A DNA stretch of 64,000 nucleotides from an uncultured Bacteroidales bacterium (GTDB taxonomy: Bacteria > Bacteroidota > Bacteroidia > Bacteroidales > VadinHA17): positions 320,223 to 384,222 of the forward strand of contig CAVWCO010000025.1 of assembly GCA_963753495.1 (NCBI GenBank), in the 5' to 3' direction. Positions within the stretch are counted from its first letter, which is position 1; the number at the start of each line of letters is the position of its first letter. Positions 4,517 to 36,826 of the stretch are shown here, piece after piece. The position numbers were made by a program, and so were the translations under genes. The notes beneath the pieces are model-generated. The model ran no database searches, was not told the DNA's origin, and saw only the letters and a list, made by a program, of their open reading frames with translations.

Positions 4517-4552
4517 TTTAGGATTAGCAGTTTTGAGAAAGCAATAATCCAT

Positions 4553-4824
4553 TAACCGCAAAGCGCACAAAGTCATCGCAAAGTCACACACCCATCAATG
4601 AAATATGGGAACATCAATAAAAATAACTTTTAGTTACACAGAGTTCCACAGAGAAGTCACAGAGACACACAGAGTTAAGAAATCAATTCTCTGTGGATCT
4701 CTGTGAACCTCTGTGATTCTCTGTGTAAGTTCTTATATTAGTTATATAGAGTACTCTAAGTTAAATCCTTAAACATCACACCTTTGGGATCTTTGCGTAA
4801 ATCCTTTGCGAACTTTGCGGTTAA
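4553..4824. repeat. Nested compound hairpin repeat element. Outer arms of tandem CGCAAAG/CACAAAG units (4553-4590 and 4786-4824) enclose an inner hairpin of 4x tandem CACAGAG units (4634-4728).
   Basis: Read directly from the sequence. The left inner arm is TTACACAGAG TTCCACAGAG AAGTCACAGAG ACACACAGAG, the loop is ttaagaaatcaatt, and the right arm is CTCTGTGGAT CTCTGTGAAC CTCTGTGATT CTCTGTGTAA. The outer left arm TTAACCGCAAAGCGCACAAAGTCATCGCAAAG is mirrored by CTTTGCGTAAATCCTTTGCGAACTTTGCGGTTAA. The element sits between the convergent PP2C and NUDIX genes. Confidence 0.75.
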
Positions 4825-5378: not shown

Positions 5379-5475
5379 CTTTGTGAGTCCTTCGTGTAAA
5401 CCTTTGTGTGACTTTGTGGTAAAAAAGAATTTAACCACAAAGGATCTCAAAGGCTGTCACTAAGTAACACAAAGG
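5379..5475. repeat. Hairpin repeat element, CTTTGTG/CACAAAG variant, with 4 tandem units per arm.
   Basis: The left arm is CTTTGTGAGTCCTTCGTGTAAACCTTTGTGTGACTTTGTGG, the loop is taaaaaagaatttaa, and the right arm is CCACAAAGGATCTCAAAGGCTGTCACTAAGTAACACAAAGG. It lies in the divergent region between the NUDIX and metallophosphoesterase genes. Confidence 0.65.
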
Positions 5476-6717: not shown

Positions 6718-8489
6718 TATGAAGGGACTTTTAATTTCAATTATTATTACAGGCACTGCTTTCCGCGTCGTGTAATAAAAATGATGATGAATGGATCAGG
6801 ATCAACCAGCTGGGCTACCGAACAGATGACATTAAAGTTGCTGTTTTTATAAGTCTTCAGGAAGTAAGTCTTACGTCATTCAGACTGGTTGATGTAAATT
6901 CCGGGAATGTTGTGCTGGTTAAAAATGAAACCGGAAATTCAGAACCGCTGGAGCCATTTAAAAGCTGTTACCGTTTATCATTCACTGAATTTACTGCTGA
7001 GGGAATTTACAGGATTGAAGCAGGAGATGCTGTATCGCCCGATTTCAGGATTGCTGATAATATTTATGACGGAACAGCCGATTTTCTGCTGAATTACATG
7101 CGACAGCAGAGATGCGGATTTAATCCTTACATAAAAGATTCGTGCCATACTCATGACGGATATGTGATTTACGGAGGATCATCAGATTCTGCTCATATCG
7201 ACGTAACAGGAGGCTGGCACGACGCTGCCGATTACCTTCAGTATGTTGCAACCTCTGCAAATGCAACCTACCAGATGTTATATGCCTATTCAGCAAATCC
7301 ATCATCATTCGGTGACAGCTATCTCGCCAACGGGTTACCAGGAAAGGACTCTGTACCTGATGTTCTGAACGAAATCAGGTGGGGACTCGACTGGCTCCTG
7401 AAGATGAATCCGGCTCCGGGTGAAATGTACAACCAGATTGCGGACGACCGTGATCACATCGGATTCCGGTTTCCGAACTTGGATACGGCGAATTACGGAA
7501 AAGGTTTTGAGAGGCCTGTTTATCGCTGCACCGGAAAGGAACAGGGCTTATTCAATTATAAAAACCGGGCAACAGGTATCGCCTCTACTGCCGGTAAATT
7601 TGCATCAGCATTTGCAAGAGGCGCTCAAGTTTATAAATCAATTGATCCGGAATTCTCCGAATTGCTGATTTTAAAAGCAATATCGGCTTTCGATTATGGA
7701 ATGGAGAACCCGGGAGCATGTCAGACTGCACCAGGTACGGCGCCATATTTTTATGAGGAGGATAACTGGACAGATGATATGGAACTTGCCGCCATCGAAT
7801 TATTTTTGATCACAAAAGATGAAAGTTTTCTGAAGCATGCCATCGGTTTCGGACGCATGGAACCTGTCACACCATGGATGGGAGCTGATACTGCCCGTCA
7901 TTACCAGTGGTACCCCTTTATAAATATGGGACATCCGGTTATTGCTTCGGGCACAGACAAAATAGATTTTAAGGAGGAATTTCTGAATAATATGAAAACA
8001 GGACTTCAGCTCATTAAAGCCAGGGGAGAAAAGAATCCCTTCCGCATCGGAGTTCCCTTTATCTGGTGCTCAAACAACCTTGTGGCTGCAACACTGACAC
8101 AGGCAGATCTTTATGCTGAGATAAGCGGTGATGAGTCATTTACGGAACTGGAGGCTGCTCACCGTGACTGGCTTTTCGGCTGCAATCCGTGGGGAACAAG
8201 CATGATTGTCGGGCTTCCTGAAAAAGGAGACTACCCTGAAAACACTCACTCATCCTATGTTGTCAAAGGGGAACAGGTACCCGGAGGACTTGTTGACGGA
8301 CCAGTTTATTCCACAATTTTCGAAGGACTCAAGTACATATATCTTTCGCAGGAGGATGAATATGCTCCATTTCAGACAAAGCTTGCGGTTTATCACGATG
8401 ATTATGCCGATTATTCAACAAATGAATGTACAATGGATGGAACAGCCTGCCTGATTTATTATCTTTCAGCTTTACAGAAAGGAAAGTAG
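6718..8489 (+). CDS. Glycoside hydrolase family 9 endoglucanase with a lipoprotein-type signal peptide and a CelD_N Ig-like domain. There is a frame break near 6775.
   Basis: The motifs GGWHDAADYLQY and QRCGFNP identify it. The main ORF is 6912..8489. A signal peptide MKGLLISIIITGTAF begins at 6718 in an adjacent frame. Confidence 0.75.
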
Positions 8490-9242: not shown

Positions 9243-9330
9243 GTTACACAGAGGTCCACAGAGGATACACGGAGGTCCACAGAGCATTTCCTCGGTGGAA
9301 CTCTGTGACTTCTCTGTGATCTCTGTGTAA
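9243..9330. repeat. Hairpin repeat element, CACAGAG/CACGGAG variant, with 4 tandem units per arm.
   Basis: TTACACAGAG GTCCACAGAG GATACACGGAG GTCCACAGAG, loop catttcctcg, then GTGGAACTCTGTGAC TTCTCTGTGA TCTCTGTGTAA. It lies between the convergent YgjP-like and MBL genes. Confidence 0.7.
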
Positions 9331-9463
9331 GCTCTTGATTATAATTGTATTTACATCCCTCTTCTAAGGGGGAATTTATATAATATACTCCTGCCGCATT
9401 GCAGGTATCTGAATATTATTAAAACCTGATTCCTGAAGACGTGCTGAATATTTTACCTGTGTT

Positions 9464-10777
9464 TCATATTCCCCATGAACAAGAAAAGTATTTCTGAAGT
9501 TCGCTTTTATTCTGGCAGCTGAGAAAATCCATCATTTCATTGTAATCGCCGTGCCCACTGAATGAATCGATATTTTTTACTTCAGCATTTACCCTGTAAA
9601 CAGTACCGAAAATTGACACCTCTTTATCTCCTCTGGCGATCCTGGCTCCAAGTGTGACAGGTGAGCAATAACCTACAATCAGAATTGTATTTTGCGGATT
9701 TGAGATATTATTTGCAAGGTGATGCTTGATCCGGCCGGCTTCCATCATACCTGAAGCTGAAATAATAATGCATGGTTTTTTAGAGTCATTCAGCTTTTTG
9801 GAATCTTCCTGCCGCGTAATATAAGTCAGGCTGTTAAAGCCAAACGGATCGGAATCTGTTTCCATGACTTTTAATATCTCCTTATTGAAACATTCGGGAT
9901 GCATTCTGAAAATTGTGGTGGCGTTTACTGCCAGTGGACTGTCGACAAATATCTCAACCCTCGGAAGCTTTCCCTGGTTGAAGAATTTGTTAAGAGAATA
10001 AACGATCTCCTGTGTTCGCCCCACACTGAATGAAGGGATGATCAGCTTCCCTCCCTTATCAACACAGGTATGATTAACGGTTTTCAGCAACTCCTCATCA
10101 GCTGAAAACAGATCCTTATGTAATCTGTCGCCATAGGTCGATTCGGTAATGAGAAAATCAGCCTGCGGAAACGGTTTTGGAGGAGCGAGTATCCTGCTTG
10201 CCGGCCGGCCGATATCGCCGGTATAAGCCAGCCGTATGGTCGTGCCATTTTCCGTGACCAGCAAATTTGCCACTCCGCTGCCAAGCATATGTCCGGTGTT
10301 TGTAAACTTCACCTTTATTTTATCATCGATCCTGAAGTTCATATTATACGGAACACCAATAAAAAGAGCCATACCCTCTTTTGCATCTTCCTGGGTGAAA
10401 AGAGGTGTAACAAGAGGCAGTCCTTTCTTTGCCCGTCTCTTGTTGAAAGTCTTTGTATCATGTTCCTGAATATAGGCTGTGTCGGCAAGCATGATTGAAC
10501 AAAGATCGCGGGTGGCGTTTGAACAGACTATCGATCCTCTGAATCCCAGTTTGTAAACATATGGGATAAGTCCGGAATGATCAATATGAGCATGTGTAAG
10601 AATAATATGATCGACAAGGGAAGGATCGAAGCCAAGGTCCCTGTTCATCCCGTCTGTTTCAAGGCCTTTGCCCTGGAACATTCCGCAGTCAAAAAGGATC
10701 CTTTTCCCTGACTCAGTTGTTAAAAGAGTTTTACTTCCCGTTACCTCTCTGGCAGCTCCTAAAAATTTAAGTTTCAT
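9464..10777 (-). CDS. MBL-fold metallo-hydrolase with a beta-CASP RNA-metabolising domain (RNase J/CPSF-like).
   Basis: The HxHxDH motif ILTHAHIDHSG with downstream beta-CASP motifs. The ORF is intact at 437 aa. Confidence 0.8.
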   Translation of the reverse strand: MKLKFLGAAREVTGSKTLLTTESGKRILFDCGMFQGKGLETDGMNRDLGFDPSLVDHIILTHAHIDHSGLIPYVYKLGFRGSIVCSNATRDLCSIMLADTAYIQEHDTKTFNKRRAKKGLPLVTPLFTQEDAKEGMALFIGVPYNMNFRIDDKIKVKFTNTGHMLGSGVANLLVTENGTTIRLAYTGDIGRPASRILAPPKPFPQADFLITESTYGDRLHKDLFSADEELLKTVNHTCVDKGGKLIIPSFSVGRTQEIVYSLNKFFNQGKLPRVEIFVDSPLAVNATTIFRMHPECFNKEILKVMETDSDPFGFNSLTYITRQEDSKKLNDSKKPCIIISASGMMEAGRIKHHLANNISNPQNTILIVGYCSPVTLGARIARGDKEVSIFGTVYRVNAEVKNIDSFSGHGDYNEMMDFLSCQNKSELQKYFSCSWGI

Positions 10778-12203: not shown

Positions 12204-12212
12204 ATTTAAAAA

Positions 12213-12244
12213 GTTTGGAGTTTAGAGTTTGGAGTTTGGAGTTT
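12213..12244. repeat. Tandem heptamer array (GTTTGGA/GTTTAGA) x4 directly 5' of the GntP start codon.
   Basis: The sequence is gtttggagtttagagtttggagtttggagttt, ending 9 bp before the minus-strand ATG at 12203. Confidence 0.5.
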
Positions 12245-19378: not shown

Positions 19379-19384
19379 TTAGGA

Positions 19385-19417
19385 TAAAAGACAAAAGATA
19401 AAAGACAAAAGACAAAG
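19385..19417. repeat. Tandem heptamer array (AAAGACA/AAAGATA) x4 abutting the SpmA/B start codon.
   Basis: aaaagacaaaagataaaagacaaaagacaaag begins 6 bp after the minus-strand ATG at 19378. Confidence 0.5.
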
Positions 19418-21788: not shown

Positions 21789-21879
21789 CCTCTGTGTAAC
21801 TCTTGCCTCTCTGTGTACTCTGTGTAACAGAATTTATAAACTTTCACTGAGTCACAGAGGATCACAGAGAGACACAGAG
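21789..21879. repeat. Hairpin repeat element, CACAGAG variant, 3 units per arm.
   Basis: CTCTGTGTAAC TCTTGCCTCTCTGTGTA CTCTGTGTAAC, a loop, then GTCACAGAG GATCACAGAGA GACACAGAG. It lies between the tandem minus-strand GH29 and DUF1080 genes. Confidence 0.65.
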
Positions 21880-24900: not shown

Positions 24901-25297
24901 CTCCGATAAGCTGAAGCTGTTTAATAAAGAAATCCTTGACACCATTGTCCTTCTGACTGGTGGCATAACCGATACAGATTTTTTCCCACATTTCTTTCTG
25001 CAGATTGCATTTCCGTTCTTCGACAGAAACCTTGAGAGACTTTCGACGGCAAACCTTGCTTTTGTATCATCACCTGTTCCGGCAGGTATTATCTGATCGC
25101 AGATCAGTCTGATCCCAGCTTCGCCCAGGGCAAGCATATCTCCCATAAGCTTGTCAGTATATCCAGCATCATTTGCCGGAAACCGGGCAAGAAGATCTGC
25201 GACCTTTGTTTCAGGTAGTCCTTTTATCCTGAGAATAAGAAACAGCTGTAATCAAAAGGAATAGTAAGGGCAGTAATCAGTGTTCTTATGATTTTCA
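21930..25297 (-). pseudogene. Large secreted lipoprotein with N-terminal HEAT/PBS-lyase repeats and two C-terminal DUF1080 (3-keto-disaccharide hydrolase-like) domains, broken into at least 8 ORFs.
   Basis: A signal peptide MKIIRTLITALTIPFDYSC begins at 25297. HEAT repeats (AVRIAAADALVRLSGNKAVPALIEYM) are in 23431..24472 and 24524..25146. The tandem DUF1080 region is 21930..23159. The DUF1080 start FNGIDLTGW continues from the HEAT C-terminus in the adjacent frame near 23100. Confidence 0.55.
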
Positions 25298-25299
25298 TA

Positions 25300-25331
25300 T
25301 TTTCAAATTTTCAAATTTTCAAATTTTCAAA
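25300..25331. repeat. Tandem octamer array (TTTTCAAA) x4 spanning the 3' end of one gene and abutting the start codon of the next.
   Basis: ttttcaaattttcaaattttcaaattttcaaa. It contains the TGA stop of the Gfo/Idh/MocA gene and ends 3 bp from the ATG at 25297. Confidence 0.5.
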
Positions 25332-26609
25332 TTGGATATTAGATTTTCCACTCTCCCCTCATAGGCTGGATTAATAAGCCTGTTAGCTCCATCATCATCG
25401 ATAAACTGCTGTTTTACAGGATCATATTTAAGGTTTCTGCCAAGACGCAATGCAATTATTCCAAGGTTTACTATTGAACACGATCTGTGTCCGTTCGATT
25501 CATTAAGAGCAAATTTCTTCCTTGTCATTACTGATTCGGTGAAAGTCAGTAATCTGAGGTTCAGGATCAGGAAGCGAATTAATAAGCTTCTCCATATCTT
25601 TTATATCTGACCTGAAACCTTTAAAGACCTTTCCTTTAGGCCCTTCAATATATGCGGCATCCTTATCGCGGTTTTCACCATCGAGGATAATCTGACATCC
25701 GTCAGCATATGTATAAGTTATCCTTCTCCACGATCCGACTGCATCATAATGCTGCTGCGGTGCATCTATTTCAACAGAAACAGGTCCTGTATCATCCTTG
25801 CCAAGCATATATTGAACAGGATCGAGATAATGCTGTCCCATATCGCCCAGTCCTCCTCCGTCGTAATCCCAGTATCCCCTGAATTTTGAATGTACCCTTT
25901 CGGGATTATATGGTTTGTAAGGAGCCGGTCCAAGCCAGAAATCATAATCGAGCTCAGCCGGAACAGTCACGGCTTGAGGTTATAGAGGCCGCTCCAGTAG
26001 AATTTCCAGTCGTATCCGGTAATCCCGCTTACGGTTACTTTCAACGGCCATCCCAGCACTCCGCTGTCGACAAGTTTTTTCAGCGGTTTGACTGTAGTTC
26101 CCAAGTCCATAAAACTGGTCCTTAAATCTGAACCAGGTATTAAGCCTGAACATCCTGCCGTTTCTCTGAACAGCCTCAACAACTTTTATCCCTTCACCTA
26201 TTGTCCGGGTCATTGGCTTTTCGCACCAGATATCTTTCCCTGCTTCTGCGGCCATTTTTGAAATTATTCCATGCCAGTGAGGAGGTGTTGCAATATGGAC
26301 AATATCAATTTCCGGCCGTGCAAGCAGTTCACGAAAGTCGTGATAGCCGTTGATCTTTCCTCCTGCCAGTGCAATTGCCTGTTCAAGATGATTCTTATCG
26401 ACATCGCAGACAGCCAGAAGACGTGTTCCTTCATAATCAAAATGCCCGCGGCCCATTCCGCCAACCCCGATGATACCTTTTGTAAGCTGATCACTTGGGG
26501 CTGTATATCCCTGTCCTCCAAGCACATGCCTTGGAACTATTGTAAAAGCAATTGCGGCTGCAGTGCTCTTTTTAAGAAAATCACGCCTGTCCAGATTGTT
26601 CTTTTTCAT
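25319..26609 (-). CDS. Twin-arginine-signal Gfo/Idh/MocA oxidoreductase (glycoside 3-dehydrogenase-like), split into 3 ORFs.
   Basis: The N-terminus is MKKNNLDRRDFLKKSTAAAIAF (TAT motif). The Rossmann and C-terminal domains are in 25980..26609, 25503..25970 and 25319..25528. Confidence 0.75.
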
Positions 26610-36667: not shown

Positions 36668-36703
36668 GGAAAGATAACTCCCAACTATCTTTCCTTTTTT
36701 TTT
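36668..36703 (+). terminator. Rho-independent terminator-like hairpin plus T9 run with no upstream annotated gene on this strand.
   Basis: GGAAAGATAactcccaaCTATCTTTCC followed by ttttttttt, inside a 700-bp intergenic region. Confidence 0.4.
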
Positions 36704-36777
36704 ATTATTCCGTCTGATTCTTCGTTATTAACTGGCTTCAACCGGGCGGTTTAAAATCAGTGTTTTTTTTGGTTTTA

Positions 36778-36826
36778 ACCTTTGTGATACATTGTGAGGC
36801 ACTTTGTGGTCCTTTGTGGTTCAATG
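36778..36826. repeat. Half-element of the heptamer repeat family, 4x tandem CTTTGTG-type units with no clear partner arm.
   Basis: aaCCTTTGTGATACATTGTGAGGCACTTTGTGGTCCTTTGTGGttcaatg. It lies about 100 bp upstream of the M3 peptidase start. Confidence 0.5.

Follow-up and report, generated by a model that had tools for sequence, protein, structure and literature searches.

Gene-less tandem-unit hairpins in a Bacteroidales genome and their probable relationship to a widespread family of GxxExxY-associated palindromic elements

Tandem-unit hairpins in intergenic spacers of the window

The window, by which we mean the whole 64-kb stretch of Bacteroidales DNA analysed here, carries seven arrays of short tandem units at six loci within 37 kb of chromosome. 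All six loci had been listed in a previous sequence-only reading of this DNA, and all were found at the coordinates, and with the cores, that it gave. The locus originally noted, a hairpin at 9244-9330, lies between convergent YgjP-like and beta-CASP genes, and the neighbours of the elements as a whole encode NUDIX, metallophosphoesterase, GH9, YgjP-like, beta-CASP, KDPG aldolase and fucosidase proteins. At five loci the arms, of three to four units each, form a long imperfect hairpin, a unit being a 7-nt core, CRCRRAG, together with a spacer of 2-6 nt. The features are as follows.

4552-4583, plus strand: left arm of an outer element, TTAAC + CGCAAAG / CACAAAG / CGCAAAG
4634-4728, unstranded: inner CACAGAG hairpin, 4+4 units, head to head, with a 14-nt A/T loop, within the loop of the outer element
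4782-4824, minus strand: right arm of the outer element, CTTTGGG / CTTTGCG x3 + GGTTAA
5379-5474, unstranded: CACAAAG-type hairpin, tail to tail, CTTTGTG x4 ... CACAAAG x3, in a divergent spacer
9244-9330, unstranded: CACAGAG hairpin (the originally noted locus), 4+4 units, head to head, ends TTA...TAA
19430-19515, unstranded: CACGGAG-type hairpin, head to head, inner units degenerate, in a divergent spacer; fold z -7.6 and -5.5
21790-21879, unstranded: CACAGAG-type hairpin, tail to tail, CTCTGTG x3 ... CACAGAG x3-4; fold z -5.7 and -5.3
36778-36826, minus strand: solo arm, four CACAAAG-type units, one of them degenerate, without an inverted partner

The locus at 4553-4824 is a nested pair, in which a CGCAAAG hairpin encloses a complete CACAGAG hairpin within its loop of ~200 nt. 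The outer ends (4552-4572 with 4804-4824) form an inverted-repeat pair that is 86% complementary, and the arm at 4552-4583 pairs with 4782-4824 in a 286-nt fold (z -9.3); the inner hairpin, 4634-4728, folds at -52 kcal/mol as RNA (z -7.6 on the plus strand and -7.8 on the minus strand; DNA z -7.1). Four of the window hairpins are head to head (CAC...>...<...GTG), with TTA or TTAAC at their outer ends. At 5379 and 21789 the order of the arms is reversed to tail to tail and the end motif, TTAAC or TAA, points toward the loop; in the 5379-5474 hairpin (z -4.6 and -4.7) the loop is faced by GGTAA / TTAACC ends, and the 21790-21879 hairpin is flanked by two minus-strand genes. The hairpin at 9244-9330 includes one CACGGAG and one CTCGGTG unit and has an RNA fold of -53.5 kcal/mol (z -7.9). 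Unit spacing within the window is 9-13 bp, mostly 10-11.

Every locus had been taken to be a long inverted repeat, and folding of both strands had been proposed as a check. Five loci do fold strongly, as long interrupted hairpins on both strands, at -33 to -54 kcal/mol with RNA parameters (z -4.6 to -7.9) and with z scores of -4.6 to -8.0 with DNA parameters. The sixth, 36778-36826, is a single arm rather than a hairpin (z +0.3), and no inverted partner was found within ~600 bp of it. In the folds the 7-nt cores pair core to core, and the 3-4 nt spacers, mostly unpaired, form internal loops.

The claim that these loci make up a real dispersed family was borne out within the window, where CACAGAG-N3-4-CACAGAG occurs 10 times against 0.00 expected from 100 dinucleotide-preserving shuffles, and beyond it, where such arrays occur across many phyla. 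A generic detector of 7-mers repeated at 9-12 bp found almost only these loci across the 64 kb. Three further short direct tandem arrays without inverted partners are present at 12212-12244, 19383-19416 and 25291-25333, namely (AGTTTGG) x4.7, which fills a 47-bp spacer, (AAAAGAC) x4.4, immediately left of the 19430 element, and (ATTTTCAA) x5.4, respectively.

Searches for known features gave little. The window contains no rRNA or tRNA, and Rfam 15 at gathering thresholds gave no match in the 64 kb; a permissive search returned eukaryotic microRNA hairpins, which are sub-threshold with E values up to 1. No T-tail was found at the elements and, since they lack one, they are not ordinary terminators, in agreement with the sequence-only reading. 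We accordingly rejected the intrinsic terminator, a G+C-rich stem-loop with a T run: a promoter and terminator scan called none of the tandem-unit hairpins, and two of the elements lie in divergent spacers. Ordinary terminator-like hairpins do lie beside two elements, at 9356-9373 and, by eye, at ~36668-36705.

The beta-CASP gene beside the 9243 element has a frame change near its 3' end (window 9379-9525). By tblastn with a 97% identical homologue, the frame is -1 for residues 1-431 and -2 for residues 418-466, and the true gene end is at 9379, not 9464; the change is either a sequencing frameshift or the mark of a pseudogene. Several other ORFs of the window are likewise shorter than, or split with respect to, their homologues.

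Distribution and turnover of the elements

A distribution scan for three CACAGAG units, with one genome per species, yielded at least 120 stretches. Among the matches listed, most are from Bacteroidota, and the inverted architecture is shared by the rest; these include, among the matches listed, Chloroflexota, Ignavibacteriota, Acidobacteriota, Geobacterales (Citrifermentans), Armatimonadota, Gemmatimonas, Beggiatoaceae (Parabeggiatoa bins), Kiritimatiellota, some Proteobacteria and two archaeal bins. Some of the taxon assignments among the non-Bacteroidota matches may be binning errors. Restriction of the pattern to this one contig, which had been named as the sign of an assembly artefact, was not what we observed, the same arrays being found across many phyla.

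Across the family an array consists of three to five heptamer cores with the consensus C-N-N-N-R-A-G (CRCRRAG in the window), with short free spacers between them and an end motif, T-T-(T/C)-(A/T)-(C/A), before the first core. Arrays are single or, more commonly, in inverted pairs (about a quarter are solo in other genomes), and a pair may be head to head or tail to tail, whether or not it holds a gene. The unit period had been equated with one helical turn. This did not survive the wider comparison: the period in the family is 8-12 bp, with 8-9 bp as frequent as 10-11, and one helical turn is therefore not defining. Placement in convergent, divergent and tandem spacers was, on the other hand, confirmed for 230 elements elsewhere, which gave 27 convergent, 28 divergent and 86 tandem spacers, roughly the background proportions of spacers.

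These features also bear on several candidates that we rejected. Iterons and partition sites, helically phased direct repeats beside a gene for replication or partition, do not suit neighbours that are housekeeping and glycan-use genes, nor a family period of 8-12 bp, and the readings as iterons, uptake sequences, pause-site arrays or OmpR-type boxes were dropped because the core is the same across phyla, the arrays are paired in inverted orientation and they are linked to a gene (see below).

Three further observations come from the scanned loci. Two hairpins, L080:3279-3365 and L090:744-850, are 92% identical over 77 nt; their contigs are binned to Heliobacteriaceae and Dysgonomonadaceae, respectively, both from termite-gut-type samples, and the likeness reflects either inter-phylum transfer or a binning error. 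In Anaerolineales (L065:1-150; L168:5370-5532 and 6817-6990), a CACAGAG hairpin lies within a longer repeated unit of ~165 nt with outer inverted ends of its own, TACCCGACA ... TGTCGGGTA, a composite arrangement comparable to the nesting seen at window 4553-4824. Finally, in ~23 of 54 viral matches the pattern falls inside a conserved ORF of ~730 aa and was discounted as a coding coincidence; the loci concerned (L002, L005, L006, L011 and ~20 others) come from one related phage group, and the ORF resembles a replication protein.

Syntenic stretches of relatives, in which the flanking proteins are 88-97% identical to those of the window, show the following states at the orthologous spacers.

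Beta-CASP / YgjP spacer (9243): CACAGAG hairpin in the window; the same hairpin, with unit-level changes, in L176 and L177
Beta-CASP / YgjP spacer (9243), other states: hairpin of 7-bp units (GGTGTGG / CCTCATA) in L175; G-rich hairpin in L263
Beta-CASP / YgjP spacer (9243), other states: IS200-like gene with its own hairpins in L259-L262; empty, with only 22 bp, in L264-L266
Metallophosphoesterase / NUDIX spacer (5379): CACAAAG hairpin in the window; absent in L176 and L177, where the spacer is clean and shorter
Aldolase / Gate spacer (19430): CACGGAG hairpin in the window; absent in L176 and L177; a different hairpin, of 8-bp units, in L175
NUDIX / SpoIIE spacer (4553): nested hairpin pair in the window; arrays of 7-bp units in relatives

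The sequence-only reading had suggested looking for insertion polymorphism between strains; among these relatives, units and hairpins come and go at orthologous spacers, the 5379 and 19430 elements being absent from L176 and L177, whose flanking proteins are 96% identical. The IS200-like gene of the third line (L259:11402-12389, also L260-L262) is an IS200/IS605-type Y1 transposase gene (Y1_Tnp) with its own REP-like hairpins, CCACGG ttacat CCGTGG, and it sits in the convergent spacer equivalent to that of the 9243 element. A similar IS200/IS605 transposase gene (131 bits with the IS200 model) lies between two CACAGAG arrays at L111.

Several genomes contain near-identical gene-less copies at separate loci (89% over 110 nt, 96% over 72 nt, 92.6% over 95 nt and 90% over 83 nt), with an identity that extends over spacers and loop. 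The window's own copies have nothing in common beyond their cores, and therefore none of them is a recent copy of another. A comparison of orthologous units in L267 (2440-2500 and 2880-2930) and L285, whose surroundings are ~93% identical, gave 1 change in 49 core positions and 6 in 14 spacer positions; in this small sample, spacers may thus change faster than the neighbouring non-coding DNA. The statement that target-site duplications are missing also held: 149 of 154 head-to-head elements have none, and duplications are no more frequent than in controls. AAGA, considered as a target-site duplication at one unit, did not generalise to other elements.

In-place replication slippage would offer a non-mobile, microsatellite-like origin for the short units, with the similarity between loci arising by convergence. 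Unit number does vary in close relatives (3 to ~20 units in the neighbouring 7-bp arrays of L175-L177), as does the number of tandem heptamers beside the ORF of the 23S rRNA intervening sequence between Coxiella strains (PMC4990558), and spacer pairs are often unequal in length. Slippage would, however, copy spacers along with cores, and the spacers differ within an array; nor does it account for a core and end motif that are the same across phyla, for clean empty sites, for 89-96% identical copies at separate loci or for the tight link to one protein family described below. It is largely refuted by these observations, and we consider it highly improbable.

The GxxExxY gene between inverted arrays

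ORF clustering over the array loci singled out a 125-aa protein of the GxxExxY family, assigned by TIGR04256 (152-159 bits) and by PF13366 (Pfam PDDEXK_3; E 1e-42). Eight GxxExxY genes or remnants were found in the scanned array loci, all of them adjoining arrays, and in the loci examined gene-less copies exceed the gene by ~10:1. Both arms are present for six of the eight (L125, L145, L156, L157, L108 and the L085 remnant), the second arm of L159 is weak, and the L119 locus is truncated by the locus end. In L125, L145, L156, L157 and L108 the gene lies exactly between two head-to-head arrays, and in L085 it is reduced to its first 24 codons between the arms, which makes this locus one clear deletion intermediate. 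The arms that enclose the gene are ~400 bp apart (the mode of the inter-arm gap is 390-430 bp). A complete unit in L267 forms a ~500-bp insertion, whose two flanking genes abut in relatives.

The earlier statement that no transposase is nearby needs to be divided. It holds for the 64-kb window, where we found no transposase gene; outside it, in many phyla, a GxxExxY nuclease gene is found between these same arms, and the elements do therefore have a nuclease gene associated with them. The loops of the window's own elements hold no GxxExxY remnant. Since neither gene nor remnant was seen in the window or in the 21-kb syntenic stretches of nine related genomes, a cognate gene in the organism of the window is assumed.

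The GxxExxY family is very large, comprising 21,899 clusters at 50% identity. In the protein, E27, D67, E77 and K79 are invariant or nearly so. A structure model with a pLDDT of 96.8 was obtained (an earlier one, built on a shallow alignment, had a pLDDT of 45 and was unusable). The protein is a predicted minimal Cas4/RecB-like PD-(D/E)XK nuclease with intact residues of the catalytic type. A sequence search of the PDB gave no match and PADLOC returned weak Cas4 matches only. Literature searches on GxxExxY/PDDEXK_3 gave almost nothing, and found neither an assigned function nor nuclease activity or binding by any family member. The best-scoring representatives (P0361-P0371), at 266-295 aa, have two tandem GxxExxY domains.

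We examined the link between arms and gene independently of the repeat, in 80 metagenome loci picked by the GxxExxY protein alone. A naive two-sided array detector passed 44 of the 74 evaluable loci, and most of the 57 loci inspected by eye have inverted arrays beside the start and stop codons, with cores that fit C-N-N-N-R-A-G (for example CACAGAG, CACGGAG, CACGAAG, CGCAGAG, CGCCGAG, CGCAAAG, CACAAAG and CAGTGAG). When the upstream flank was compared with the reverse-complemented downstream flank, 35 of 73 loci reached a score of at least 40, as against 6 of 73 with flanks from mismatched loci. Of 1764 ORFs, 70 are flanked by inverted repeats, and half of those 70 (35) are GxxExxY genes. The proposal that core variants match between the two arms of a locus was upheld in these repeat-independent loci, 30 of 36 of which share one majority core between their arms (permutation mean 6.9, maximum 15). 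Moreover, in 37 of 43 cases a protein and its nearest neighbour belong to the same core class (permutation mean 17.1, maximum 29), and the CACAGAG protein clade spans hosts of 32-63% GC. Other arrays in a locus carry the core of the unit in 17 of 37 cases (permutation mean 5.9), although these cases are not independent. The arrays and the GxxExxY gene are shown to be one co-inherited unit; simple co-inheritance, and not recognition, could be the reason why protein clade and core go together.

REP-like elements of this sort could in principle have been mobilised by a different enzyme, a single-strand transposase (Y1/HUH, as in IS200/IS605 or RAYT) that works on hairpins in single-stranded DNA. 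Consistent with such an enzyme are the missing target duplication, hairpins that are predicted with DNA parameters as well, and the two placements given above, of a transposase gene between CACAGAG arrays in L111 and of a Y1_Tnp gene in the very spacer of the 9243 element in L259-L262; the end motif TTAC also resembles the IS608 target. Against this, the ~130 array loci contain one such case versus eight for GxxExxY, the L111 and L259 genes have their own, different subterminal hairpins, and the sole Y1 gene found between arrays scores 21.8 bits with the RAYT model, for which the cut-off is 80. Furthermore, the symmetric inverted-repeat ends are unlike those of IS200/IS605, and the set of array-flanked ORFs yielded no Y1 gene. 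A Y1/HUH origin is, on balance, very unlikely.

Arm pairing, known systems and a possible mechanism

The pairing between arms is confined to the cores. Across 52 gene-less hairpins from many genomes, spacer positions are complementary at 36.8%, about what unrelated sequence might give, and 37 of 134 spacer pairs are of unequal length; because cores pair while spacers do not, the arms are not plain inverted duplications. Position-specific compensatory changes are seen between the orthologous units of L207, L209 and L215 (CACAGAG/CTCTGTG versus CAATGAG/CTCATTG versus CAGTGAG/CTCACTG), and one compensatory pair was found in the comparison of the window with L176 and L177. Heterogeneous units gave 29 cases in hairpin register versus 23 in the reversed register. 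On the gene-sense strand, G.U-type and A.C-type mismatches are equally common (104 versus 102 overall and 27 versus 26 inside helices), and selection for pairing solely in mRNA is therefore unsupported. One heptamer that fills all units of an arm, its recurrence across phyla and the free spacers fit protein recognition of the core better than selection for the stem alone.

It is against these data that host selection has to be weighed. The elements might be structural or regulatory, acting on transcripts as processing sites, insulators or stabilisers (RNase III substrates, for example), with GxxExxY as a passenger or homing gene lodged in their loops. The strong hairpins predicted on both strands and the compensatory changes would be expected of such elements, the loops do take other insertions (the nested element in the window and the IS200-like gene in L111), and RNase III cuts the stem of the Coxiella intervening sequence (PMC4990558). 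Selection for a stem does not, however, explain the use of one heptamer per arm or the occurrence of CACAGAG across phyla and over 32-63% GC; the unpaired spacers, the equal mismatch counts, the quarter of arrays that are solo, the lack of a T-tail and the absence of elements at orthologous sites in close relatives also speak against it. Host selection therefore strikes us as an unlikely account of the family.

Among described systems, REP, BIME and REPIN-RAYT elements resemble the present ones in consisting of short extragenic units, single or in inverted pairs in both orientations, that form hairpins; the window elements and their relatives are likewise extragenic, multi-copy, hairpin-forming inverted pairs. 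The two also share a small nuclease-type gene bracketed by two inverted units, gene-less copies that outnumber the gene, and the lack of a target duplication. They differ in that a REP unit is a 20-40 bp imperfect palindrome tagged by GTAG or CGTC (PMC3733652), whereas here we find tandem arrays of non-palindromic heptamers with free spacers and a T-T-(T/C)-(A/T)-(C/A) end motif. The bracketed gene encodes a GxxExxY PD-(D/E)XK protein, not a Y1/HUH one, and the hosts centre on Bacteroidota, Chloroflexota and others, in contrast to the Proteobacteria of REP/REPIN-RAYT.

The 23S rRNA intervening sequence of Coxiella and Leptospira is a selfish element of ~430 nt, inserted in a helix of the 23S rRNA and removed by RNase III, with an inverted-repeat stem and a ~120-aa S23p (four-helix-bundle) ORF in its loop (PMC4990558). 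Complete GxxExxY relatives share with it an inverted-repeat stem with heptamers around a small ORF. The window elements, by contrast, are intergenic between protein-coding genes and have a stem without an ORF, and their units, of the GxxExxY class, are core plus spacer rather than contiguous 7-bp units. MITEs are similar in being small, intergenic and non-coding with inverted ends, with near-identical copies in some genomes, and at least one copy here (L085) resembles an internal deletion of a gene-carrying element, with ends common to the GxxExxY units. Unlike MITEs, the present elements have neither a target-site duplication nor a recognised transposase, their ends are arrays of repeated cores rather than a single terminal repeat, and most copies are alike in their cores only. 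The STRR repeats of cyanobacteria, Beggiatoaceae and some Bacteroidetes are also intergenic arrays of 7-nt words with a patchy occurrence across phyla. In the TAACTGA/STRR heptamers, however, direct repeats follow one another without spacers at a period of 7 bp, in most cases shortly before a start codon, with one inverted set reported and no associated gene (PMC4679880).

Membership in REP/RAYT, MITE, intervening-sequence, terminator or Rfam families thus fails on at least one defining feature each, and the literature searched (core words, REP/MITE in Bacteroidetes, GxxExxY and PF13366) contains no description of these elements. The view that they are not a described REP, BIME or MITE family stands to this extent, with the qualification that a described analogue exists in the 23S rRNA intervening sequence (PMC4990558). 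By analogy, the closest functional parallel would be REP/REPIN with RAYT, and the closest anatomical one the intervening sequence. The element is real, widespread and undescribed in the literature searched, and is best filed with the REP/MITE/intervening-sequence kind.

Our preferred reading, to which we assign a probability of roughly 0.6, is that the window hairpins are gene-less, REPIN/MITE-like members of a widespread family of GxxExxY-associated palindromic elements. The relation of the family to the units in the window is well supported; mobilisation by the GxxExxY nuclease is inferred. In the complete form, two arms enclose the gene for the ~125-aa GxxExxY protein, and the window copies would be the gene-less counterparts of this form. 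A multimer of the cognate nuclease may recognise the cores. Gene-less hairpins would then be carried or maintained in trans, as REP/REPIN sequences are by RAYT or MITEs by transposases. Insertion would proceed without target duplication, with a probable preference for intergenic spacers and the loops of other hairpins, and the hairpins, when transcribed, would presumably fold, as 23S rRNA intervening sequences do, into long stems with interruptions.

Besides the lack of a GxxExxY gene in the window and the divergence of the window's own copies, some observations sit less easily with this reading. Identical GxxExxY proteins in different samples always have the same gene context; over short times, complete units therefore stay where they are, which argues against frequent recent jumps. 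The inserted segments include 10-40 nt of extra DNA outside the arms, which is untidy for precise transposition. And a simple transposon with terminal inverted repeats does not predict head-to-head as well as tail-to-tail pairs.

Other small genes were also seen between inverted arms. In L064 (4990-5500 and 5950-6450) two genes for four helix bundle proteins (TIGR02436, 23S rRNA intervening-sequence/Avd-like) each lie, in intergenic DNA, between inverted arrays of contiguous 7-bp units, TTGGGTG/CACCCAA and GGGTTTC/CGAAACA, and in L175-L177 the sites orthologous to the window's elements are occupied by gene-less hairpins of this contiguous-heptamer type. In L264 (5100-6325) G-rich inverted arms (TTTCCCCTCCTTcgcAAGGAGGGGTGGCCCGG...) enclose a DUF559 (Vsr-like endonuclease) gene. 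The whole insert, ~1.17 kb long, is flanked by a ~50-bp direct duplication of sequence at the 3' end of the MOFRL gene that lies upstream; gene-less G-rich hairpin versions occur in L175 and L263.

The L064 and L264 cases hint at parallel classes, and we offer, as a tentative proposal with the odds somewhat against it, that GxxExxY proteins act as the enzymes of REPIN-like genomic replicators of a class not recognised before, which use a PD-(D/E)XK nuclease instead of a Y1/HUH one, and that this could be one of at least three parallel systems. Each of three systems would comprise a small ORF family between its own inverted arms, made of tandem units in the first two: GxxExxY with core-plus-spacer arms, four-helix-bundle intervening-sequence/Avd-like proteins with contiguous heptamers, and DUF559 with G-rich hairpin arms. 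If this is true, gene-less hairpins left by such systems populate intergenic spacers across many bacterial phyla.

For GxxExxY/PDDEXK_3, the tight physical link to a specific repeat provides a concrete, testable substrate. It also ties the long-unexplained rRNA intervening sequences to a wider group of elements that combine a hairpin with a small ORF, and it would account for intergenic hairpins that are common in Bacteroidota and other phyla and otherwise confuse searches for terminators, small RNAs and repeats. Since their turnover at orthologous spacers is rapid, such elements are of use as markers of strains, and they may drive changes in operon structure.
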